From positions 1,464 to 65,463 of the forward strand of contig JASFKQ010000001.1 of NCBI GenBank assembly GCA_050118555.1: a DNA stretch of 64,000 bases, written 5' to 3'. The notes beneath the pieces were generated by a model that saw nothing but the letters and a program-made list of their open reading frames with translations, was not told the origin of the DNA and did no database searches. This stretch comes from Lysobacterales bacterium (lineage in GTDB: Bacteria; Pseudomonadota; Gammaproteobacteria; Xanthomonadales; SZUA-36). Shown piece after piece: positions 25,799 to 59,376 of the stretch; positions within the stretch are counted from its first letter, which is position 1; each line of letters opens with the position of its first letter. The translations under genes were made by a program, and so were the position numbers.

Positions 25799-25819
25799 TG
25801 CCTATCCTCCGAGTATCAA

Positions 25820-25896
25820 GGCGAGCGCAGTTGTCTGTCTTACGCGATTGCCGAGCCTGGCCCCGCGTGCGGGCGGGGTCGCAGCGCTCCTCGGAA
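25820..25896 (-). promoter_or_regulatory. SAH riboswitch in the ahcY-metF leader
   Basis: The minus strand reads uuCCGAGGAGCGCUGCGACCCCgcccgcacgcGGGGCCAGGCUCGGcaaucgcguaagacagACAACuGCGCUCgcc. The blocks GAGGAGCGCUGC, CAGGCUCGG and ACAAC-GCGCUC match the SAH-element consensus as I recall it. The position 5' of ahcY is the canonical context. Not checked with a covariance model. Confidence 0.8.
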
Positions 25897-25928
25897 TCGC
25901 GGTTGATGATCCCGGTGCGATATCCGGG

Positions 25929-27092
25929 TCAGAGTCCGGCGGCCGAGCGGATGTGCTCCACTCGGTCCAGGGCCTCCCAGCTCACGTCCAGGTCTTCGCG
26001 GCCCATGTGTCCGTATGCGGCCAACGGCCGGTAGATCGGCCGGATCAGGTCCAGCATGCGAATGATCGCGTACGGCCTCAGGTCGAATTCCTGCCGGACG
26101 ATCTGCTCGATTTTCTTGATCGGGATGCGCTCGGTTCCAAACGTGTCGACGCTGACGGACGTCGGCTCCGCGACGCCGATCGCGTAGGAGACCTGGATCT
26201 CGATGCGATCGGCGAGCCCCGCCGCGACGAGGTTCTTCGCCACGTAGCGGCACGCGTAGGCGGCCGAACGGTCCACCTTGGAGGGGTCCTTACCGGAGAA
26301 CGCGCCACCACCATGGCGCGCCATGCCGCCGTAAGTGTCGACGATGATCTTGCGGCCCGTGAGCCCGGCGTCGCCAACCGGACCGCCGATTTCGAAACGG
26401 CCGGTCGGGTTGATGTGGTACTTGGTGCTGCCGTTGAGCCATTCCCCCGGCAACACCGGCTTGATGATCTCTTCCATCACCAGTTCACGCAGGTCTTCCT
26501 GGCTTGACTCCTTGCTGTGCTGCGTGGACAGCACGACCGCGTCGATACCCACCGGGCGCCCGTCCTCGTAACGGAACGTGACCTGGCTCTTGCCGTCCGG
26601 ACGCAGGTGGCGCATGCCGTCATCCGTAGTGCGGCGCACCAGGCTCTGGCGCTTGATCAGTTCGTGAGCATAGTGAATCGGCGCCGGCATGAGAACGTCC
26701 GTCTCATTGGTGGCGTAACCGAACATCAGGCCCTGGTCACCGGCGCCCTGGTCCTCGGGCCGTTCCCGCGATACACCTTGGTTGATGTCGGGGGACTGCT
26801 TGCCGATGATATTCATCACCGCGCAGGTATGGCCGTCGTAGCCCACCTCGGAAGAATCGTAGCCAATCTCCACGATGACACCGCGGATCAGCTCTTCCAG
26901 GTCCACCCAGGCGCTCGTGGTGATCTCGCCGCCGACGATGGCGACACCGGTCTTGACAAAGGTCTCACAGGCGACGTGCGCTGCCGGATCCTCGCTCAGT
27001 ATCGCGTCGAGCACCGCATCCGAAATCTGGTCCGCGACCTTGTCCGGATGTCCTTCGGAGACCGACTCCGACGTAAACAGATAACTACCCAT
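25929..27092 (-). CDS. metK: S-adenosylmethionine synthetase
   Basis: [33 protein letters not shown] and [19 protein letters not shown]. Confidence 0.95.
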
Positions 27093-27326
27093 TATTCAGT
27101 TCCTCCGGCACCGGGCAAGGCCCGACAGGGATCAATACATCTTTCAATCATGATAAAGAGATATATGGTATCGGAATCAATTTGCAAACGCAAAGCGCAC
27201 AGCCCCCACCCGGCCGGTGTGCGACCGCCTGCATCGAAGCCCGGCGCGGCGCGCCGCCGGCCGCTGGTGCAATGTGTGGGGGATGCCTATAGAATTGCCT
27301 GCTATCCCGAACGACTGCCCGAGACC

Positions 27327-28835
27327 ATGCCAATGCAAAGAACCATCGCACAGTCGATCCTCGACAACTTCCTGGGCAACGCGGCCGGTTGGTACAAGCT
27401 GACCATCGTCGCTTTCCTTCTGGTCAACCCGCTGGTACTCGCCGTCTTCGGACCATTTCTGGCCGGTTGGTTGCTGGTCGCCGAATTCATTTTCTGCCTC
27501 GCCATGGCGCTGAAGTGCTACCCGCTGCAACCCGGTGGAATGCTGGCCCTGGAAGCGGTCCTGCTCGGCATGACGAGCCCAGCGACCGTCTACCACGAAT
27601 CCGAAAACAACTTCGCGGTGATCCTGCTGCTGATCTTCATGGTTGCGGGCATCTTTTTCCTGAAGGACCTCCTACTGTACATCTTCACGAAGATCCTGAT
27701 CCGGGTGCGTTCGAAGGTACTGCTCTCACTGATGTTTTCGCTGGTCGCGGCCGTGCTCTCGGCGTTCCTCGACGCACTCACCGTGACGGCGGTTATCATC
27801 ACCGTCGCGGCGGGACTTTACGCGGTATACCACAAGGTGACATCCGGCAAGGGATTCGATGACGACCACGACCATGCCGACGACACGGGCATCGGCACCG
27901 AAACCAAAGACGACCTGGAACTGTTCAGGGCGTTCCTGCGCAACCTGATGATGCACGGCGCCGTCGGCACCGCGCTGGGCGGCGTTTGCACCCTCGTTGG
28001 CGAACCCCAGAACCTCCTGATCGGCGAAATTGCAGGTTGGCACTTCGGCGAATTCTTCGTGCGCATGGCGCCGGTGAGCATACCGGTGCTCGTCGTGGGA
28101 CTGCTGACCTGCATCGCCGTGGAGAAGTTCCGCATCCTCGGCTACGGGGCGGAGATGCCCCTGGCGGCCCGGCATATCCTTGAGCGCTACGACCAGATAG
28201 AAGACGAGAAGCGCACGCAAAGCCAGCGCGCGGCGCTGATCATGCAGGCCCTGGTGGCGGTGTTCCTGATCGTGGCGCTCGCCTTCCACCTGGCGGAAGT
28301 GGGCCTGATCGGCCTGACGGTGATCGTGCTGGCCACCGCAATGACAGGGATCGTGGAGGAACACCAGCTGGGCCACGCCTTCTCCGAGGCACTGCCGTTC
28401 ACCGCCCTGCTGGTGGTGTTCTTCGCCATTGTCGGCGTCATCCACGACCAGCACCTGTTCCAACCGGTCATCGATTTCGTGTTCACGCTGGACCAGCATG
28501 CGCAGGTGCCCGTGTTCTTCGTCGCCAACGGCCTGTTGTCGGCCATTTCCGACAACGTTTTCGTTGCGACGGTATACATCAACGAGGTGTACGCGGCACT
28601 CGATGCGGGCGGCATCACGCGCGAGCATTTCAATCACCTGACCGTGGCCATCAACACTGGTACGAACATTCCCTCGGTGGCGACGCCGAACGGCCAGGCG
28701 GCCTTCCTGTTCCTGTTGACGTCGGCGCTGGCGCCGTTAATCCGTCTCAGCTACGGCCGGATGGTGTTGTTGGCCTTGCCGTACACGATCACCATGACCG
28801 CGACCGGCCTGCTCGCCACCATCTTCCTCCTTTAG
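27327..28835 (+). CDS. nhaB: Na+/H+ antiporter NhaB
   Basis: 502 aa from ATG 27327 ([35 protein letters not shown]...), multi-TM, NhaB-like throughout. The ORF-track start at 26517 is an antisense artefact over metK. Confidence 0.85.
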
Positions 28836-28855
28836 GAGCTCCCAAAGGGCGTAAA

Positions 28856-28874
28856 CCCGCTCTGCGGGCGATTG
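28856..28874. repeat. REP-like motif cccgctctgcgggcgattg (copy 1 of 3 in window)
   Basis: 19-nt exact match to 48260-48278. Contains the small hairpin gcccgc-tct-gcgggc. Confidence 0.7.
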
Positions 28875-28884
28875 CCTACGAGGC

Positions 28885-28989
28885 GACCGGACCGGGTAGT
28901 GCCTTTCGGGACACGCTCGAGACATCCATGTGCGCTATTAAATCGTTCCCGACGATTTAATGTCCCGAAAGGCACTACCCGGTCCGGTC
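28885..28989 (+). repeat. Hairpin element X1 (105 nt): 29-bp perfect stem, conserved 30-nt core, mini-hairpin
   Basis: 28885-28913 pairs 29/29 with 28961-28989. Core ggacacgctcgagacatccatgtgcgctat at 28909-28938. Mini-hairpin taaatcg-ttcccga-cgattta at 28939-28959. Confidence 0.8.
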
Positions 28990-29062
28990 TCTACACTTCC
29001 AGCAAATGAAGAAAAAACCTTGCGGGGAGTACTCACAACCGGGCTCGCGCCACAGGTAGTCA

Positions 29063-29171
29063 GCAGGGGGCCAGGGTACCCCCTTGACGGACATTAGCCT
29101 GTCGGGAACAGGCTCATAGCGCACATGGATGTCTCGAGCGTGTCCGGCGAGGAGGTACCCTGCCCCCCTGC
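29063..29171 (-). repeat. Hairpin element X2 (109 nt), inverted homologue of X1
   Basis: 29063-29093 pairs 27/31 with 29141-29171. Exact reverse complement of the X1 core at 29116-29145. Mini-hairpin agcctg-tcgggaa-caggct at 29096-29114, which has the same loop as X1 when read on the minus strand. Confidence 0.8.
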
Positions 29172-29255: not shown

Positions 29256-29531
29256 TCAGCGGAAAATAAGCCAGGTAAGGTAGACCAGCAGGAAGAAAAT
29301 TACCGGCAGGATGACCACCATCGACTTGCGCGCACCCGCCATCAGGTTCGCGCTGGTCTCCTGGATCTTCTCGGCGCGGTCGTTGATTTTTTCCGCCCGC
29401 TCGAACTGCGTGCGTGCCAGATCCAGTTGTTCGCGCTGGAGCTTCAGCGCCTGCTGCTGGCCTTCCAGCAGCTTTTCCTGCGCTTCACCGATCCTGCGCA
29501 GCGAGTCGAGAACCTCCTCGTCGTGAGTCAT
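29256..29531 (-). CDS. Small coiled-coil protein with C-terminal TM anchor (91 aa)
   Basis: Heptad-like, Gln/Glu/Lys-rich N-part and a hydrophobic tail MVVILPVIFFLLVYLTWLIF. Starts 15 nt after the gloA stop. Confidence 0.55.
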   Translation of the reverse strand: MTHDEEVLDSLRRIGEAQEKLLEGQQQALKLQREQLDLARTQFERAEKINDRAEKIQETSANLMAGARKSMVVILPVIFFLLVYLTWLIFR

Positions 29532-29546
29532 GGCATTGCGCCCCCG

Positions 29547-29966
29547 TCACCAGCTCCCGGTATTGTCCATTGACGCCCAGGGTTCCTTCGGTGGCAGCGC
29601 CTCACCGCGCTGGAGCAGTTCAATGGATATCCCGTCGGGCGACCGGACGAAAGCCATGTGGCCATCCCGCGGCGGCCGGTTGATGGTGACGCCACCATCC
29701 ATCAGTCGCTGACAGGCTTCGTAGATATCATCCACCGCGTATGCCAGGTGGCCGAAATTGCGACCGCCGTCATAATCCTCAGGGTCCCAGTTGTAGGTCA
29801 GTTCAACCTGGGCATCCTCGTCGCCGGGGGCCGCCAGGAACACCAGCGTGAATCGCCCCTGCGGCACGTCCTTCCGATGAAGCTCCGCGAGCCCCAGCTT
29901 GTTGCAGTAGAAATCCAGGGACTTGTCCAGGTCCGAAACGCGGACCATCGTGTGCAGATATTTCAT
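29547..29966 (-). CDS. gloA: Lactoylglutathione lyase (glyoxalase I)
   Basis: [20 protein letters not shown]..., [18 protein letters not shown] and GISIELLQ match the GloA pattern. Confidence 0.85.
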
Positions 29967-41962: not shown

Positions 41963-44900
41963 ATGATGCTTGAAGGATCGAACACGAGTGCCGCGATCGG
42001 CTGGGTGCGGGAGGACCTGGACGAATGCCTCGAGACCATTCGCGAGAACCTGGAAGCCTTCGCGGAAGATCCGGCACAGCGCGATCCGCTGGCCGCCGTA
42101 CAGGAAGAGCTCGAGCGGCTGAACCTCATCTTCCTGACCATGGAGCAACGCGGCGCCAGCATCCTGACGGATGAAATGATCGCGGTCGGCGGCCACATGT
42201 TGCACAACGGCAAGGCCAACGTCGAAGAATCGCTCAACGCGCTCACCGACGCGATTATCGTTTTGCCCTCGTACCTCGACCGCCTGCAGGCCGGGCACGA
42301 AGACCTGCCCATACTGTTGTTGCCGACCCTGAATGAACTCCGGGCCACCTACGACGAATCCCTGCTCTCCGAAGGCACGCTGTTCGCCCCGGACCTGGAC
42401 GTCATCATTCCCGAGCTGAGCGGCAGTGAGGCCGACGCGATCGCCGCCAGCGATTTCCCCGCTTTCGCCCGCCGCGTGCGCAGCCTGTACCAGGGCGCCT
42501 TGCTCGGTTGGCTCAAGGAACAATCCAAGGACTCGCTGCTCAACCCGATGCAGCAGGTGTGCCGCAAACTCTACATACGACTGGGCCGTAACGAACTCCG
42601 GCGCCTCTGGTGGATCGCAGAGCAGGTCATGCAGGGATTAATCGATGACTCGATCGACAACGACCTGGCGCTTCGCCGCCTGTTCGCCCGGCTGGACCTG
42701 ACGCTCAAGGCCATGACCGAAGGCGGAGAGAAGGGACCGGCCAGCGACACGATCACGGCGCTGTCCCGCGCGCTGCTGTTTTACGCCGCCCAGGCACGGC
42801 CCGGCAGCAAGGCCACCGACACCCTGAGGAAGCACTTCAAGCTCGAGGAGCTGATCCCCGACCGCGACGCACTGATGCGCGCCAGGGGAGCGGTGACGGG
42901 CCGCGACGCCGGCCTGTTCCAGTCAATCGGGGATGCCGTGCGCGAAGAGCTCAGCCAGGTCAAGGACACCCTCGACATGGAGCTGCGCACCGGCCGGATC
43001 GATGCCGAACAGCGAGCGGAGAGCAGAAAATCGCTCCAGCAGCTCGCCGACACGCTGCGCATGCTGGAGCTGCCCGTCCCGGCGCACGCCGTGGAGGAGT
43101 TGCTGCCGGCGCTGGAAGAGACCAAGGGCGCCACCAATATGGACCTGGACTCGCCGCTGCTGGCGCTGGCCCAGAAACTGATCGAAGTCGAGTCGATCCT
43201 GAACACCCACATCCAGCTGTTGGGCGAACCGGTCGAGGAGCAGGCCGCCACCGACGGGCTCTCGCTGCCGCCGCACGAACAGCGGCAAATCCTCGGCCGT
43301 CTGCTGGACGAATGCGTTTCGACGCTGCGGGAAGTCCAGGACGCGATCCGCGAGCGGCTCGACGGCAATGCCGAAGCGGACTTCAACACGGGCCTGGCCC
43401 AGATCGCGGGCGCACTGGGCGTGGCTTCGCAGGGTGAAGTCGCGGCGCTGACCGGAAAGCTCGGCCGGGCGCTCAACGCGGCCCTGGCTCAGCCCGGGGA
43501 CGTCCCCAACCTGGAAGCCCTGACCGACGCAGTCGCCGCGCTGGAGCTCTACCTCGCCGGATGCCGCGACGAACAGGCCAACAGCGTGCGTTTCCTCGAA
43601 GTCATGCACGGCCGGCTCGAAGGCTTGCCGGAAGCAGACGCCGATGGTGGGGAAGTGCCCGAGACCAGCATCACGCTGCCAAGCCGGAGCCGCGAAGCGC
43701 CCGCACCTGCAGAGGCGCGCGAGCCAGCGCCTTCGGCAACAGGTATCGACCCGGCCATGCTGGGGATCTTCCTCGAAGAGTTCGACTCGGTCCGCAGCAG
43801 CCTCGAGAGCCAGCTCAAGCAATGGCTGGAGGAACCGGCCAACCAGAAGGCGCTTGGCGAGGTGCGGCGCGCGTTCCACACGCTCAAGGGCAGCGGCCGC
43901 ATGGTCGGCGCCGCGGAAATCGGCGAATTCGCCTGGCGCGTCGAGGACCTGCTCAACGCACTCATCGAGAAGCGCATCGAATTCTCCCCGGCCCTGGGCG
44001 ACACAATCGTTCTGGCAACCGCTGCGCTCGATCCTCTTCGTGCGTGCCTGGTGAATGAACCAGCCACGCTAGAACCCGACGCCATACAGTCGCTGGCGGC
44101 GCACATACAGAAGATCGGCGCCGGCAAGCGCGCCGATGTCGAGGAGCTGAGGAACAGCCTGCCTGACGCCTTCCTCGCGGCACTTGCGGCGGAACCGGAA
44201 AAGGCAGCCGACGCCAGAGCCGAAGCCGAGCCCGTGGCGGCCGCCGCCGAGGACGAGGATACGGACCTCGAACCCGAGCGGCTGGAAAGACTGCTGAGCG
44301 GCGAGGAAGTGGACCCGACGCTGCGCCAGCTGATGATCGGCGAAATCCAGAGCTATCTCGGCGAGTTCGAATCCTTCGCCGATGGTCTCGCCTCGGGCCA
44401 AGACCAGGCAGTGAGCCCGAACCTGGTGCGCGCTGCGCACACTCTGGCCGGAACGCTGTCGATGGCGCCCCTGGGCCAGGAGGGAGACGTTGCACGCGCC
44501 CTGGAAGACTACCTGGACAACCGGCTGAAGACCGACCGCCCGGTCGCGGCTGCATCCTCTCTTCCCGTGCAGACCGCCCTGCACCGTTTCCACCAGCGCC
44601 TGTTCGTGCTGGAGGAAGGGGCTGCGGAGACCTATCCGCTGGAAGACGAGCGTCTGCTGGCCAACCTCGCCGGCCTGGCCGAACTCGAGGATTCGGCCAC
44701 GGATTCCCGGACGGAACCCACCGCTCAGGAAGAGCGCGCGGAGACGGAAGAGCGTCCCGCCACGGAGGCGAAGGCTCCGGCTTCGGAACCGGCGGCGCCG
44801 GAAGAAACGTCCGCGGCCCCGGAAGAACAGCCGGAGACGGAAGAACCCGCCGTCGCGGAGTCGGAAGCGGCGGCCCCGGAACCCGATGGGCGGCATATCT

Positions 44901-47404
44901 CGATCGAAGAGGGAAGCATCATCGCCATCTTCCTGGAAGAGGCGAACGAGGTGCTGGAGCGCTGCGACACACTGTTGAATACCTGGCGCGACAAGCTCTC
45001 CGACCGCAAGCTGGTGCAAAACCTGCAACGCGAAATCCATACGTTCAAGGGCGGCGCGCGGATGGCCGGGCTAGAGGGGCTCGGCGACCTCAGTCACGCG
45101 ATGGAGACGCTGCTCGAACATATCGCCGCCGGCCGTCTGGAGGCGACCGTCCTGGCGGTGCAGGCACTGGAAGAAGGCTGCGACCGCCTGACCGTCTGGG
45201 TCGAGCAAATCCAGTCGGGCACGTTGCCGGAAACGGGCGACGCGCGCGCCCGGTTCGAACAGCGGGTGAAGGCGCTGCGGATGCCGGCGGCGGAGCCGGA
45301 AGAAGAACCGGCGGCGGAGCCGGTCGACATGCGTCCGGCGACACCGAAACCCGATTCTTCCCGCGAAGCGGAAGCCGGGGAGACGGCGGAAGTCCGGACC
45401 GAGGACACACCGGAAGCCGCACCGGAAGAACCGCCGGCGCCCGAACCGACCCGGCACAAGGCGCCCCGCCCGGCGGCGGCGCGAAAGCCCGGTCTCGGCG
45501 AAGAACCGGCACGGGAATTCCGGGAGATTACCGAGAGGACCTCGGCGGCTTCCGACGACGCCGGGGCCGGCGCGCAGATCCGGGTTGCCGCGGAACTCAT
45601 GGACAAGCTGGTCAACTACTCCGGCGAAATCAGCATCTACCGTTCGCGCCTCGAACAGCAACTCGGCACCGTCCGCTTCAACCTGAAGGAGGTGGACGCG
45701 ACCGTCCAGCGCCTGCGCGACCAGTTGCGCAAGATGGACATGGAAAGCGAGGCGCAGATGATGTCGCGCTACCAGAGCGCTTCTACGCAGGGCACATCGG
45801 AATTCGATCCGCTCGAGCTCGATCGCTTCTCCAACATGCAACAGCTCTCGCGGGCGCTCTCGGAAACCGTCAGCGACCTCGTGAACCTGCACGATATGCT
45901 CGACGATTCGGTGCGCCAGGCCGAAAGCCTGCTGACGCAGCAGTCCCGGGTCAGCAGCGAACTGCAGGAAGGTCTGATGCAGACGCGGATGACGCCGTTC
46001 GGCAGCGCCGCGCCGCGTCTGCGCCGCGTGGTTCGCGCCGCCGCCACCGAAACCGGCAAAAAGGCGCGCCTGCAACTGCGCATGGCCGGTTCCAGCGATC
46101 AGCTCGATCGCAACGTGCTGGAGCGCATCACCGCGCCGCTCGAGCACATGCTGCGCAATGCCGTGGCCCATGGGATCGAGGACCCGAAGGTCCGCCGCAA
46201 GCTGAAGAAACCCGAAGAGGGCAGCATCACAGTCACCGTGCAAGCCGAAGCGACAGAGTTCGTGATCCGTGTCCAGGACGACGGCAGCGGCATCAACCTG
46301 GACGCCGTCCGCAAGCGCGCAATCGAGCGCGGTATGATCAAGGCCGACGAGCGGGTCGATCCGCATCGACTGGTTCAGTTCATTCGCGAAAGCGGGTTCT
46401 CGACCGCGCAGACCGTGACCGGGCTGGCAGGCCGCGGCGTGGGCATGGACGTCGTGAACAGCGAGATCAAGCAGATCGGCGGTTCGATGGAAATCGACAC
46501 CGAGGCGGGCAAAGGCACCCGCTTCACGATCCGGATTCCGTTCAGCCTGGCGGTCATGCAGGCCATCGGCGTGACCGTCGGCGATCGTCCCTTCCAGATT
46601 CCGCTGAACAGCGTGGCGGGTGTTACCCGCATGAGCCCCTCGGAGTACGGCGCCCTGGTCAAAAGCGAGGCGCCGAGCTGCCATTTTGCGGGCGAAGACT
46701 ACCCGTTGCTCGAGCTCGAACCGTTGCTGGACGCTCCCACGCTACCGCTCGACAACGATAACGTGTCGCTGCTCCTGATCCGTACGGGCGATTACAAGGC
46801 GGCATTCCGCGTGTCGGCCCTGCAGGGCCACCAGGAAGTCGTCATCAAGCCGGTCGGACCGCAGATCAGCAGCATCCCCGGGATCCTGGGCGGCACCATT
46901 GCCGCGGACGGACAGGTGATGATCATCCTGGACATGGGCCCGCTGATCCGCCGCGGCCTGGAGCGCCCCATCCAGCCACCGGAACCCGCCCCGGCGCCGC
47001 GCGAGGAATCGCGCAAGCCGGTCGTCATGGTCGTCGACGATTCGATCACGATGCGCAAGGTGACTTCCCGCGTGCTGGAAAACCATTCGCTGGAGGTCAT
47101 GACGGCCCAGGACGGTCTGGACGCCGTCGAGAAGCTGCATGAACGCGTACCGGACCTGATGCTGCTGGACATCGAGATGCCACGGATGGACGGATACGAG
47201 TTGCTCGAGCACGTCCGGGCCGACGCGCGGCTCCGGCACGTACCGGTGGTCATGATCACGTCGCGCGCCGGGCAGAAGCACCGCAAGAAGGCAAAAGCGG
47301 CCGGCGCAAACGCCTACCTGACCAAACCGTACCAGGAACCCGAACTGGTCGAGCAAGTCAGTGAGATGCTGGGCATCGAACTCGTGCCGAGGAGGTCGGA
47401 CTGA
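41963..47404 (+). CDS. chpA: ChpA/PilL hybrid CheA-type histidine kinase (multi-Hpt, HATPase, CheW, C-terminal receiver)
   Basis: 1813 aa. Hpt motifs FHTLKGSGRMVG and IHTFKGGARMAG plus a degenerate AAHTLAGT. Acidic Pro/Glu-rich linkers. Kinase core LEHMLRNAVAHGIE...GRGVGMDVV. CheW-like region. REC domain VVMVVDDS...LLDIEMPRMDGYE...TKPY. Confidence 0.92.
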   Translation: MMLEGSNTSAAIGWVREDLDECLETIRENLEAFAEDPAQRDPLAAVQEELERLNLIFLTMEQRGASILTDEMIAVGGHMLHNGKANVEESLNALTDAIIVLPSYLDRLQAGHEDLPILLLPTLNELRATYDESLLSEGTLFAPDLDVIIPELSGSEADAIAASDFPAFARRVRSLYQGALLGWLKEQSKDSLLNPMQQVCRKLYIRLGRNELRRLWWIAEQVMQGLIDDSIDNDLALRRLFARLDLTLKAMTEGGEKGPASDTITALSRALLFYAAQARPGSKATDTLRKHFKLEELIPDRDALMRARGAVTGRDAGLFQSIGDAVREELSQVKDTLDMELRTGRIDAEQRAESRKSLQQLADTLRMLELPVPAHAVEELLPALEETKGATNMDLDSPLLALAQKLIEVESILNTHIQLLGEPVEEQAATDGLSLPPHEQRQILGRLLDECVSTLREVQDAIRERLDGNAEADFNTGLAQIAGALGVASQGEVAALTGKLGRALNAALAQPGDVPNLEALTDAVAALELYLAGCRDEQANSVRFLEVMHGRLEGLPEADADGGEVPETSITLPSRSREAPAPAEAREPAPSATGIDPAMLGIFLEEFDSVRSSLESQLKQWLEEPANQKALGEVRRAFHTLKGSGRMVGAAEIGEFAWRVEDLLNALIEKRIEFSPALGDTIVLATAALDPLRACLVNEPATLEPDAIQSLAAHIQKIGAGKRADVEELRNSLPDAFLAALAAEPEKAADARAEAEPVAAAAEDEDTDLEPERLERLLSGEEVDPTLRQLMIGEIQSYLGEFESFADGLASGQDQAVSPNLVRAAHTLAGTLSMAPLGQEGDVARALEDYLDNRLKTDRPVAAASSLPVQTALHRFHQRLFVLEEGAAETYPLEDERLLANLAGLAELEDSATDSRTEPTAQEERAETEERPATEAKAPASEPAAPEETSAAPEEQPETEEPAVAESEAAAPEPDGRHISIEEGSIIAIFLEEANEVLERCDTLLNTWRDKLSDRKLVQNLQREIHTFKGGARMAGLEGLGDLSHAMETLLEHIAAGRLEATVLAVQALEEGCDRLTVWVEQIQSGTLPETGDARARFEQRVKALRMPAAEPEEEPAAEPVDMRPATPKPDSSREAEAGETAEVRTEDTPEAAPEEPPAPEPTRHKAPRPAAARKPGLGEEPAREFREITERTSAASDDAGAGAQIRVAAELMDKLVNYSGEISIYRSRLEQQLGTVRFNLKEVDATVQRLRDQLRKMDMESEAQMMSRYQSASTQGTSEFDPLELDRFSNMQQLSRALSETVSDLVNLHDMLDDSVRQAESLLTQQSRVSSELQEGLMQTRMTPFGSAAPRLRRVVRAAATETGKKARLQLRMAGSSDQLDRNVLERITAPLEHMLRNAVAHGIEDPKVRRKLKKPEEGSITVTVQAEATEFVIRVQDDGSGINLDAVRKRAIERGMIKADERVDPHRLVQFIRESGFSTAQTVTGLAGRGVGMDVVNSEIKQIGGSMEIDTEAGKGTRFTIRIPFSLAVMQAIGVTVGDRPFQIPLNSVAGVTRMSPSEYGALVKSEAPSCHFAGEDYPLLELEPLLDAPTLPLDNDNVSLLLIRTGDYKAAFRVSALQGHQEVVIKPVGPQISSIPGILGGTIAADGQVMIILDMGPLIRRGLERPIQPPEPAPAPREESRKPVVMVVDDSITMRKVTSRVLENHSLEVMTAQDGLDAVEKLHERVPDLMLLDIEMPRMDGYELLEHVRADARLRHVPVVMITSRAGQKHRKKAKAAGANAYLTKPYQEPELVEQVSEMLGIELVPRRSD

Positions 47405-48212: not shown

Positions 48213-48251
48213 GCCTGCCTATCCCGCCAGCCGGGTTTGGCTGGCTTCCCG
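48213..48251. repeat. 39-bp direct repeat, copy 2
   Basis: gcctgcctatcccgccagccgggtttggctggcttcccg. Immediately preceded (48198-48211) by an inverted copy of its own first 14 nt. Confidence 0.8.
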
Positions 48252-48356
48252 CGTAGGAGCCCGCTCTGCGGGCGATTGAAAGATCGCAACCCACACCTGA
48301 GCGCGCGATGCACGTGATGCCGGATACTGTTTCGCCCGCAGAGCGGGCTCCTACGC
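48251..48356. repeat. REP-like inverted pair: perfect 25-bp arms gcgtaggagcccgctctgcgggcga separated by 56 nt
   Basis: 48251-48275 is the exact reverse complement of 48332-48356. Each arm carries the gcccgc-tct-gcgggc mini-hairpin. The motif is shared with 28856-28874. Confidence 0.85.
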
Positions 48357-58704: not shown

Positions 58705-59073
58705 ATGATCGGATACGTGACACTGGGTACCAATGACCTGGAACGGGCCGTGGCCTTTTACGACGAACTGCTGACGCTGGTGGGCGCCAAACGGTTCATG
58801 GAGGATCCGGGCCATTTCGTCGCCTGGGCAACCGGGCCGAACTCTCCCGGCCTGTCGGTAACGATTCCCTTCGACGGGAATCCCGCAACCGTCGGCAACG
58901 GGACCATGGTCGCGCTGATGGTCCAAAGCAAGGAAAAGGTGCACGAAGTGTACGATCGGGCCATCGCTCTCGGGGGCAAGGACGAGGGCCCCGCCGGGCC
59001 CCGTTCCGACGGGTTCTACGCCGGCTACTTCCGCGACCTGGACGGCAACAAGCTGAACGTGTTTTGTACATAG
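58705..59073 (+). CDS. VOC (glyoxalase-fold) family protein
   Basis: MIGYVTLGTNDLERAVAFYDELL... and YFRDLDGNKLNVF. GAGGAG upstream of the start. Confidence 0.75.
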   Translation: MIGYVTLGTNDLERAVAFYDELLTLVGAKRFMEDPGHFVAWATGPNSPGLSVTIPFDGNPATVGNGTMVALMVQSKEKVHEVYDRAIALGGKDEGPAGPRSDGFYAGYFRDLDGNKLNVFCT

Positions 59074-59338
59074 GGCCTGTCAACACGGCACGAGCCCACG
59101 CTGTTGCGACTGAAACAGCGCCAAACAGGGTGCAAAGAGTCATTTTTGGAGGCTCCACGGGAACAACGCGCTGCTCGGAGTGGCGCTGTTTCAGCCTCAA
59201 CCCTTCGGGACGCGGCCATATTTCCCGCTGGCGGCGTTATCACTCGCTCATGTAGCGGTGCTACACCGCGCTCGTTCTGCCTTGTCAGTTGAAAATATGG
59301 CCCGCGGCAGCGCGGGCTCGCACCGTGTTAACAGGCCC
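59073..59338 (-). repeat. 266-nt inverted-repeat element folding as a three-way junction (structured-RNA or MITE-like candidate)
   Basis: Outer stem 59073-59103 / 59308-59338 (27/31 bp). Inner stems 59110-59123 / 59181-59194 (14/14) and 59211-59225 / 59291-59306 (14 bp, 1 bulge, 1 mismatch). All 5 mismatches are C-A on the + strand, which means G-U on the - strand. Confidence 0.75.
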
Positions 59339-59376
59339 TTGCCGGATTGACACTGCGACACCTGGCCCGGTACGGG

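Follow-up and report, generated by a model that had tools for sequence, protein, structure and literature searches.

A previously undescribed family of intergenic bulged-hairpin repeats of about 105 bases in sediment Gammaproteobacteria

Introduction

Repeats of the REP, REPIN, BIME and ERIC kinds are abundant in bacterial genomes, and how they spread and what role they play are still poorly understood. In the 64-kb window analysed here (the whole stretch of DNA under study), the gap downstream of nhaB holds two long convergent hairpins, designated X1 and X2, that have the same core and different arms. An earlier note on this DNA, made from the letters alone, took an invariant unpaired core with covarying helices as the sign of a selected RNA or single-stranded DNA structure more than of a freshly copied MITE. 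The locus thus raises the question of what kind of element constrains its sequence in this way, and whether it is used as RNA or as DNA. We collected further copies of the element and analysed their architecture, covariation, gene context and distribution among related genomes.

Results

Anatomy of X1 and X2 at the nhaB locus

The two hairpins lie in opposite orientations between nhaB and a gene for a 91-aa membrane protein (Table 1), and their geometry agrees with the earlier description. The arms 28885-28913 and 28961-28989 of X1 pair at 29/29 positions. The arms 29063-29093 and 29141-29171 of X2 are complementary at 27/31 positions (87%), and both pairs of arms enclose exactly 47 nt. The RNA fold of X1 has an energy of -77 kcal/mol (z = -12.2) and that of X2 has a z-score of -7.8; in both cases, 0 of 200 shuffles were as good. 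The 30-mer GGACACGCTCGAGACATCCATGTGCGCTAT is shared by the elements as an exact reverse complement. Its only two exact sites in the window are 28909-28938 (+) and 29116-29145 (-), against an expectation of 0.00 from 100 shuffles. A third site for this 30-mer was not found in the window, even when 3 mismatches were allowed. The inner mini-hairpins were also borne out: they have a common 7-nt loop, TTCCCGA, and stems that differ between X1 and X2 and are fully paired in each. The long arms, previously put at about 60% identity, are about 54% identical, or about 61% when the common GGACA is counted, yet each copy pairs with itself.

The upstream gene was identified by a Pfam match to PF06450 (NhaB, E = 1.1e-235) covering residues 273-771 of the ORF at 26517-28835, and a 500-aa gene is called at nhaB in contigs matching the window. 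The earlier statement that the gap contains no ORF holds only loosely. Called mechanically, ORFs of 45-49 aa do overlap the X1 and X2 hairpins; however, they extend across the variable arms and show no conservation within the family. A conserved core peptide was likewise rejected, because the frames that start with ATG, on either strand, stop at different points and extend into the variable arms, and core variants lack the ATG.

Table 1. Features of the X1/X2 locus (positions in the window)
Feature	Position	Strand	Basis or remark
nhaB (Na+/H+ antiporter B)	27333-28835	+	start approximate; stop 49 nt ahead of X1
REP singlet CGTAAACCCGCTCTGCGGGCGA	28850-28871	+	ends 13 nt ahead of X1
X1, complete bulged-hairpin element	28885-28989	+ (core strand = +)	inverted repeat, fold, covariance model
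X1 outer helix P1, 5' arm	28885-28912	+	partner = 28962-28989; alignment columns 4-33 / 83-112
X1 one-sided bulge, A + CGCTCGAGACATCCATGTGCGCT, unpaired, conserved	28913-28936	+	columns 34-57
X1 inner hairpin P3	28937-28961	+	stem 28937-28946 / 28952-28961, tip loop TCCCG 28947-28951; columns 58-67 / 73-82
X1 outer helix P1, 3' arm	28962-28989	+	inverted repeat, fold
Spacer inside the convergent X1/X2 pair, 73 nt	28990-29062	.	no counterpart conserved in other pairs
X2, complete element, opposite orientation	29063-29171	- (core strand = -)	inverted repeat, fold, covariance model
X2 outer helix P1	29142-29171 with 29063-29092	-	
X2 bulge	29118-29141	-	
X2 inner hairpin P3	29093-29117	-	
91-aa membrane protein gene	29256-29531	-	stop 84 nt from X2; homologue called 'DUF106 family' by one source
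Glyoxalase gene	29547-29966	-	beyond the 91-aa gene

A family of at least 20 copies

Both large scans used exact words from the window, and the sample is therefore biased to the window's core variant. The genome scan (exact 20-mer, one genome per species) gave two true members, in the MAG 'Lysobacterales bacterium N3D-Bin_16_1', and one chance match besides. The scan of JGI metagenomes with an exact 18-mer gave 25 contigs, of which 17 contain the full hairpin and 8 match by chance without a hairpin. Loci L007, L010, L014, L019, L020, L022, L029, L032 and L033 were rejected as members on this ground, i.e. as chance word matches lacking the hairpin. A search pattern for the core of the family is GGACACGYTCNAGACNTCCNTGTNCRCT followed by the TTCCCGA loop.

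As the earlier note had proposed, a covariance model (R1) was built, from 15 distinct members. It scores X1 at 122.9 bits and X2 at 113.9 bits, detects no copy in the 64-kb window beyond these two, and recovered five extra copies with diverged cores in the fetched loci. All model-found copies differ in the core from the exact word; therefore, the family is larger than the scans show. It now amounts to at least 20 distinct copies (alignment A3) from metagenome contigs and one Lysobacterales-labelled MAG, and one source contig is titled 'sediment metagenome'. The exact-word scans, which miss core variants, gave about 15 distinct copies across the whole metagenome collection; two copies are seen in the window and at least two in one MAG. 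Judged from these exact-word scans, the copy number appears to be a few per genome, unlike that of typical REPs.

The Rfam search suggested previously returned no family for the elements, either at the locus or in the whole-window scan. At the locus, Rfam 15 with permissive E-values gave only sub-threshold scores for mir-651 (29.7 bits vs 106) and mir-277 (22.6 vs 43), which are generic long-hairpin matches. At the gathering score, nothing was found at X1 or X2 in the whole window; the only match in that scan was a SAH riboswitch elsewhere in the window. No match was obtained by blastn of the elements against PLSDB plasmids and GenBank phages, by a tolerant pattern scan of IMG/VR viral contigs, or by blastn of X1 (word size 11) against 5,426 complete E. 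coli genomes. A full-text literature search with four core sub-strings returned unrelated primers only. The X1/X2 family of intergenic repeats of about 105 bases in sediment Gammaproteobacteria is previously undescribed.

Common architecture and covariation

All 20 copies align without a gap and have an invariant interior of 47 nt; the sole indel is found in L047, where both arms lack 1 nt at matching positions. Each copy follows the same plan, an interrupted stem of about 40 bp with a one-sided bulge of 23-24 nt and a tip loop that is conserved. P1, the outer helix, spans 27-34 bp without gaps, with columns 4-33 paired with 83-112. The column pairs 58:82 (A:U in 14 copies, C:G in 6) and 67:73 (U:A in 18, C:G in 2) also covary, and do so perfectly; therefore, the inner hairpin P3 has 9-10 bp and a 5-nt tip, TCCCG, and is stacked directly on P1. 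RNAalifold recovers P1 and P3 unaided. The further helix that it places inside the bulge (35-55 ... 42-48) shows no pair with changes on both sides and is disrupted in L011b, L012a, L025a and L047, and the bulge was therefore treated as unpaired.

Standard pairs fill 94.1% of the 780 cells, compared with 34-43% for slid partners and 66.6% in shuffles. Double-sided changes are found in 34 of the 39 pairs (27 of 30 in P1) among the 20 copies, and 205 cells are changed on both sides vs 56.5 in shuffles. None of 500 shuffles reached any of the five covariation measures, and in columns 7-33 there is a single one-sided change in 540 cells. The covariation is very strong. The view that X1 and X2 are not freshly copied MITEs was thus upheld: near-identical copies with target-site duplications and no covariation are not what we found, since the copies are far from identical, covary strongly and have no target-site duplication.

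Conservation is concentrated in the bulge and the loop. Averaged over pairs of copies, the arms are 49% identical and the P3 stems 60%, compared with 95% for the core bases outside the search word and 92% for the loop and its closing pair; 12-14 core-flanking bases lay outside the search word. Among the bulge columns (34-57), 18/24 are invariant in all 20 copies and three more are at least 90% conserved. The variable ones are 37, 40, 45, 49, 53 and 55. All five model-found copies differ in one or other of these six, with C for A at column 49 in every case. The 'invariant core' of the earlier note accordingly stands for most columns; however, the model-found copies and X2 of L047 vary at 4-6 core positions, and the apparent invariance is partly an ASCERTAINMENT artefact of searching with the exact core word.

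The arms from different organisms have a common length, a common register and a weak central GG(G/T)TA motif. It is therefore unlikely that the arms represent a palindromic target that was entered by the core. The idea that the arms are regenerated at each copying event was rejected, because the two L025 copies are alike at 97/115 positions, arms included.

Maintenance of pairing

Related copies were compared pair by pair for changes on one or both sides of a base pair; where the relationship is close, most of the differences are double changes. The orthologues L015b and L028, whose 3' flanks are 88% identical, differ by 2 double and 0 single changes, and L012b and L031, which have the same bulge and P3, differ by 10 double and 3 single changes. 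The corresponding numbers are 6 and 3 for L023 vs L025b, and 4 and 6 for L025a vs L025b. Intrastrand template switching in long quasi-palindromes, a known mutational mechanism, copies one arm from the other.

Changes that run nearly all from one Watson-Crick pair to another, with few intermediates even between close relatives (as in the first two comparisons), would also be expected if X had no function. In that case it would be an old, decaying palindromic MITE, with its arms kept by template switching and the apparent invariance of its core the product of the search word and gene conversion. Such a reading is helped by the core differences in every model-found copy, by X2 of L047 (4/24 core differences and the symmetric 1-nt deletion), and by X1 and X2 themselves, whose same core and different arms fit conversion within a genome. 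However, the 12-14 flanking bases and the loop, all outside the search word, are far more alike than the arms (92-95% vs 49%), most bulge positions are unchanged in the five model-found copies, and the 47-nt interior and helix length are invariant in all copies. Moreover, an identical core is shared by several organisms with differing REP types, which within-genome conversion cannot explain. Two strain SNPs in the arms (L003 and L005) are uncompensated, indicating that correction of the pairing is not immediate. We therefore regard a functionless X as rather improbable. The pairing may be kept by selection on the folded single strand, by template switching, or by both acting together; the data fit either process.

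Gene context and the question of an RNA

Neighbouring genes were verified by Pfam because GC3 alone could not tell sense from shadow frames. Single copies lie 33-88 nt past the stop codons of GlnRS-type (L021), GluRS-type (L017), parB (L009), CitMHS transporter (L030), Exo_endo_phos (L016) and ligA (L031) genes. Three copies occupy gaps between co-directional genes, with about 50-80 nt on each side, and are therefore very probably transcribed.

This context is consistent with a function of X as RNA. The hairpin could be a 3' or intercistronic mRNA stabiliser or processing site, which blocks 3' exonucleases or serves as an RNase III site, or it could be matured into a small RNA in which the conserved 23-nt bulge is a seed or a protein-binding site. 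The position of every copy with a verified neighbour shortly after a stop codon, the three copies in probably transcribed gaps, the very strong covariation in two helices and the strict length conservation all suit such an RNA. In addition, the A.C mismatches of P1 would read as G.U on the complementary strand, by 12 to 1.

However, an RNA that works through its sequence has to keep one orientation relative to transcription. In 5/6 single copies with Pfam-verified neighbours the core strand runs antisense to the gene upstream, the pair members that were checked (X1, X2, L011b and L025b) are sense to the proximal gene, and the overall ratio relative to verified genes is about 5 sense to 5 antisense. 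The proposal that each copy lies in the orientation of the gene it follows does not hold as a general rule. Assignment of a strand by wobble pairs, folding energy or GC skew gave contradictory or null results. P1 contains 531 Watson-Crick, 1 G.T, 12 A.C and 15 other pairs, and P3 contains 140 Watson-Crick, 5 G.T, 2 A.C and 5 other pairs; the wobble pairs of P3 point to the strand opposite from that indicated by P1. The RNA folding energy is better for the core strand in 10 copies and for the other strand in 10 (p = 0.49), and the GC skew of the host contigs is mixed alike. On neither strand does G.U account for more than about 2% of the helix cells. In natural RNA helices of this size, several per cent of G.U pairs are usual; its near absence here fits complementarity that is kept at the DNA level.

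A sigma-70-like promoter was not found at the elements, and the terminator scan gave none at X1 or X2, its three sites all being inside the 91-aa gene. X hairpins also differ from intrinsic terminators in that no T run follows them. The RNA reading is further weakened by the lack of an Rfam match and by the presence or absence of the element at the same locus in relatives (see below). The X family is not a strand-specific 3'-UTR RNA of its neighbouring genes, and we consider a function as RNA of any of the above kinds unlikely. Together with the association with REPs described below, these findings point to a DNA-level repeat more than to a selected RNA; of the selected RNA or single-stranded DNA structure suggested earlier, the constraint on pairing was confirmed. 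The 12:1 excess of A.C over G.T in P1, in which eight of the A.C pairs lie 22-25 bp from the core with A always on the 5' arm, is a strand asymmetry that the DNA-repeat model leaves unexplained.

Presence and absence of X at the orthologous locus

Homologues of the 91-aa protein gave access to orthologous loci in which the gene order is the same. The gap between the 91-aa gene and nhaB is an empty site of 12 bp in L042 and L043. It measures 63-95 bp and is filled by REPs in L035-L040, holds REPs in L051, contains in L041 an unrelated 264-bp element that ends in inverted repeats of its own, and has a 170-nt hairpin element of another kind in L048 and L050. The closest relative, L047 (78% protein identity), possesses an orthologous X2 with the same upstream flank and has REPs in the place of X1. 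Thus, related genomes differ in whether they have X at this locus, and since relatives have an empty site or other repeats there, the X elements were gained at this locus.

The X2 orthologues of the window and L047 differ at 4/24 bulge positions and by one P3 pair (G-C to A-T). About 8 differences are found per arm, including the matching 1-nt deletion in both, and the L047 arms pair almost perfectly. The cores of X1 and X2 are identical, though the X2 orthologue in L047 has diverged. Both X1 and X2 are present in each of six near-identical contigs from the population to which the window belongs.

Association with REPs and convergent pairs

The window has its own 'Pseudomonas-style' REP, whose doublet forms a hairpin at 48251-48356. 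The REP 16-mer CCCGCTCTGCGGGCGA is found in the singlet next to X1 and in both doublet arms, i.e. 3 times in the window vs 0.21 expected. A GTAG-type REP ends 16-17 nt ahead of P1, with its head pointing away, in L008, L009, L012b, L015a, L028 and L031, so that seven copies have a REP ahead of P1 when X1 (13 nt) is counted. An inverted REP lies 16-18 nt past P1 in L008, L009 and L016. X is thus often at the centre of a REP doublet. At least five host-specific REP types occur beside X, for example TGTAGGAGCG...CGCGA, TGTAAGAAC...GTTCGT and GCAACTTGCGCGCAA. These GTAG-type REPs are outside X, 11-18 nt off; the X arms have in common among themselves only the weak GG(G/T)TA. No REP can be recognised near about half of the copies, among them X2. 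Around the 20 copies there is no recurrent direct repeat that would indicate a target-site duplication, and each copy has its own helix ends. With neither a target-site duplication nor a conserved terminal sequence, an insertion mechanism cannot be read from the ends.

Five convergent pairs were found (X1/X2, L011, L012, L015 and L025). All have the core orientation + then -, with 39-633 nt between the copies; by our calculation, the probability of the same arrangement in 5/5 is about 0.001 if the four arrangements are equally likely. Inspection by eye gave no obvious similarity among the between-copy segments of the five pairs. The copies of the L025 pair, the most alike, lie on either side of an XRE-type HTH gene, which together with one of the copies is enclosed by a 31-bp direct repeat. 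A transposase between paired copies was considered and rejected, as the only roomy pair (L025) holds the HTH gene.

The uniform arrangement of the pairs and the bracketed gene of L025 would be compatible with site-specific recombinase sites. Convergent pairs would then bound small invertible or mobile modules, the asymmetric core would be the crossover site, and the arrangement would resemble the inverted Xer-type sites that flank 'dif modules'. However, 4/5 pairs enclose just 39-163 nt of non-conserved, non-coding sequence, most copies are single, and no recombinase gene is adjacent at any locus. The variable arms are unlike sequence-specific recombinase binding sites, and among the six near-identical contigs of this locus no inverted inter-copy segment was found. 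Such a role is highly improbable.

Discussion

REPINs are REP doublets that form hairpins and are mobilised by RAYT transposases (Bertels & Rainey 2011, PMC3116915). They are DNA mobile elements in which compensatory changes keep the length and hairpin capacity of the spacer (PMC3116915). Because such compensated spacer stems have already been described (PMC3116915), covariation alone cannot separate the X family from the REP class. X resembles REPINs in being a dispersed, non-coding, extragenic hairpin of about 100 nt that is often located downstream of genes. It has an invariant 47-nt interior, an ungapped helix of 27-34 bp and double-sided changes in 34/39 pairs, and it is physically associated with REPs, three copies lying inside REP doublets. 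In contrast, REPIN arms are conserved and the centre is free, whereas the X arms are only 49% identical and the bulge and loop are conserved; X also lacks the conserved GTAG-headed arm, and its copy number seems low.

Other systems share parts of this design. In E. coli BIME-1 (RIP), two inverted REPs surround a conserved central motif that binds IHF. X likewise has inverted palindromic units around a conserved central module and lies after genes, and the centre of BIME-1 is read by a protein. However, the centre of X is embedded in a 30-bp helix, it has no sequence similarity to E. coli genomes, and it keeps no consistent IHF consensus because the inner stem varies. ERIC (IRU) sequences are imperfect palindromes of 127 bp that occur in transcribed intergenic regions of enterobacteria in either orientation. 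They are comparable to X in size, imperfect palindromy, copy number (low to moderate), a probably transcribed intergenic location, occurrence in both orientations and presence or absence between related genomes; however, ERIC copies are alike over their whole length and X copies only in the apical module, and the search of E. coli genomes with X1 gave no sequence similarity.

Integron attC sites are recognised by structure and have variable paired arms of about 60-140 nt, with the conserved outer R and L boxes RYYYAAC ... GTTRRRY. Structure rather than sequence constrains both attC and X, and a folded single DNA strand is proposed for both. In attC, however, the outer boxes are conserved and the centre varies, the opposite of X. 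Moreover, X is found without cassette arrays or a nearby integrase, and its neighbours are housekeeping genes (GlnRS, GluRS, ParB, LigA and NhaB). MITEs, such as the Correia/NEMIS elements of Neisseria, end in conserved inverted repeats and are flanked by target-site duplications. X is similar in that both are small non-autonomous intergenic repeats that fold into long hairpins; it differs in lacking both of these terminal features.

We put the chance at about even that X1 and X2 are copies of a new variant of the REP/REPIN/BIME class, i.e. a non-coding DNA repeat maintained as a hairpin, in which the bulge and loop are likely a protein-recognition module. Like members of this class, X is gained and lost as DNA in short gaps downstream of genes, and it may still be mobile today. 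We infer that it would act as a folded single DNA strand, for example when the duplex is opened in replication or when a cruciform is extruded. The stem would need only to pair and to keep its length, and its sequence could drift freely via paired changes. Sequence specificity would reside in the bulge and loop, which a trans-acting protein would read. This putative reader, for which the centre of BIME-1 and its binding of IHF offer an analogy, may be a DNA-binding factor of the host or an enzyme associated with REPs (RAYT/HUH-type). Several observations count against a REP-class assignment: the low apparent copy number, the roughly half of the copies without a REP, the reversal of conservation relative to REPINs, the lack of a target-site duplication or conserved terminal sequence, and the location 33-88 nt past stop codons in DNA that is probably transcribed.

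Whatever its class, the X family inverts the usual pattern of conservation, with a free stem and a fixed apical bulge and loop. Its 20 copies, with covariation in 34/39 pairs and with orthologous, duplicated and empty sites, form a natural experiment in which the positions that must pair can be separated from those that must be read. The defined 23-nt bulge and 5-nt loop could serve as bait for a protein partner. Should a REP-associated transposase or a hitherto unknown enzyme prove to be this partner, DNA recognition by structure would have a wider known range. The family is also a warning for RNA-motif discovery, since very strong covariation, usually taken as the mark of a functional RNA, is found in an element whose other properties point to DNA.

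A bolder interpretation, which we consider improbable, is that the bulged hairpin is the dedicated ligand of a new structure-reading system, either a non-autonomous mobile element or a stand-alone class of small structured RNA. In the mobile-element version, an enzyme might recognise the bulge (23 nt) and the loop (5 nt) as displayed by a 40-bp stem whose sequence is arbitrary, the converse of the relation between REP and RAYT. In the RNA version, a 23-nt single-stranded 'seed' might be held in a long stem of the RNase III type. The bulges of a convergent pair are perfectly complementary on one strand, and they could pair with each other.

Palindromic repeats at the nhaB gene end and elsewhere in the window

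The convergent gene end between nhaB and the gene for the 91-aa membrane protein is a landing pad for palindromic repeats in general. Besides X, the bulged-hairpin repeat, at least three other, unrelated hairpin-type repeats fill this gap in related genomes, and they include short palindromic repeats (REPs) with a GTAG-type head (Table). A REP singlet also adjoins X1, the forward copy of the convergent X pair, at window positions 28850–28871. The same REP forms a REPIN-like doublet elsewhere in the window, in which the arms pair perfectly (25/25) across a 56-nt spacer. The window contains a further nested palindromic element, in which two hairpins (59103–59201, interior 57 nt; 59214–59302, interior 55 nt) are enclosed by the inverted repeats. 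Its sequence is unrelated to that of X.

Palindromic elements and an associated gene in the window and in fetched contigs (L-numbers)
Feature	Location	Description
Element with ~25-nt terminal inverted repeats	L041 1132–1395	264 bp; in 91-aa gene/nhaB gap
~170-nt hairpin	L048 3277–3443; L050 327–534	Flanks TTTTACTGTTGGAGCGGCC...; in 91-aa gene/nhaB gap
GTAG-type REPs	L035 3277–3371	In 91-aa gene/nhaB gap
REP doublet hairpin, REPIN-like	Window 48251–48356	Arms GCGTAGGAGCCCGCTCTGCGGGCGA, 25 nt each
Nested palindromic element	Window 59072–59339	268 bp; outer inverted repeats 37 nt, 84% complementary
Orphan XRE/HigA-like HTH gene	L025 ORF 497–826	Pfam HTH_3, E = 1e-10

X loci in L011 and L025, and contig ends at X

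The segment between both X copies of contig L011 (248–410) holds a third, truncated copy, which retains one arm, GGACA, and an inner hairpin with the TCGGGAA loop, and from which the bulge has been deleted. A flank of ~35 nt is also present there in duplicate (CTGCACAAG...GACTGGTCCTCTGCG). In L025, a 31-bp direct repeat (168–198 and 914–944), which repeats the upstream gene's 3′ end, encloses an insert of ~750 bp that is richer in A+T and carries one X copy together with an orphan HTH gene. This insert looks like a small integrated module.

Several metagenome contigs end within or directly beside an X copy (the contig ends of L004 and L006; L027, L034, L018, and L028), with a convergent X pair beside two or more of the ends. 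The shared inverted core of X probably breaks short-read assemblies; therefore, the family is likely to be under-represented in assembled data.

Other features of the window

An SAH riboswitch (RF01057) was detected on the reverse strand at 25816–25898, where it scores 55.8 bits (gathering score, 37). It adjoins metK (25929–27092, reverse strand), which is followed by an adenosylhomocysteinase gene in the matching contigs. A single forward ORF (41963–47404) encodes a CheA-like hybrid histidine kinase of 1813 aa with three Hpt domains, HATPase_c, CheW, and a receiver domain. Over this ORF, AT skew is strongly positive (maximum 0.17) and the G+C content of the window reaches its peak.
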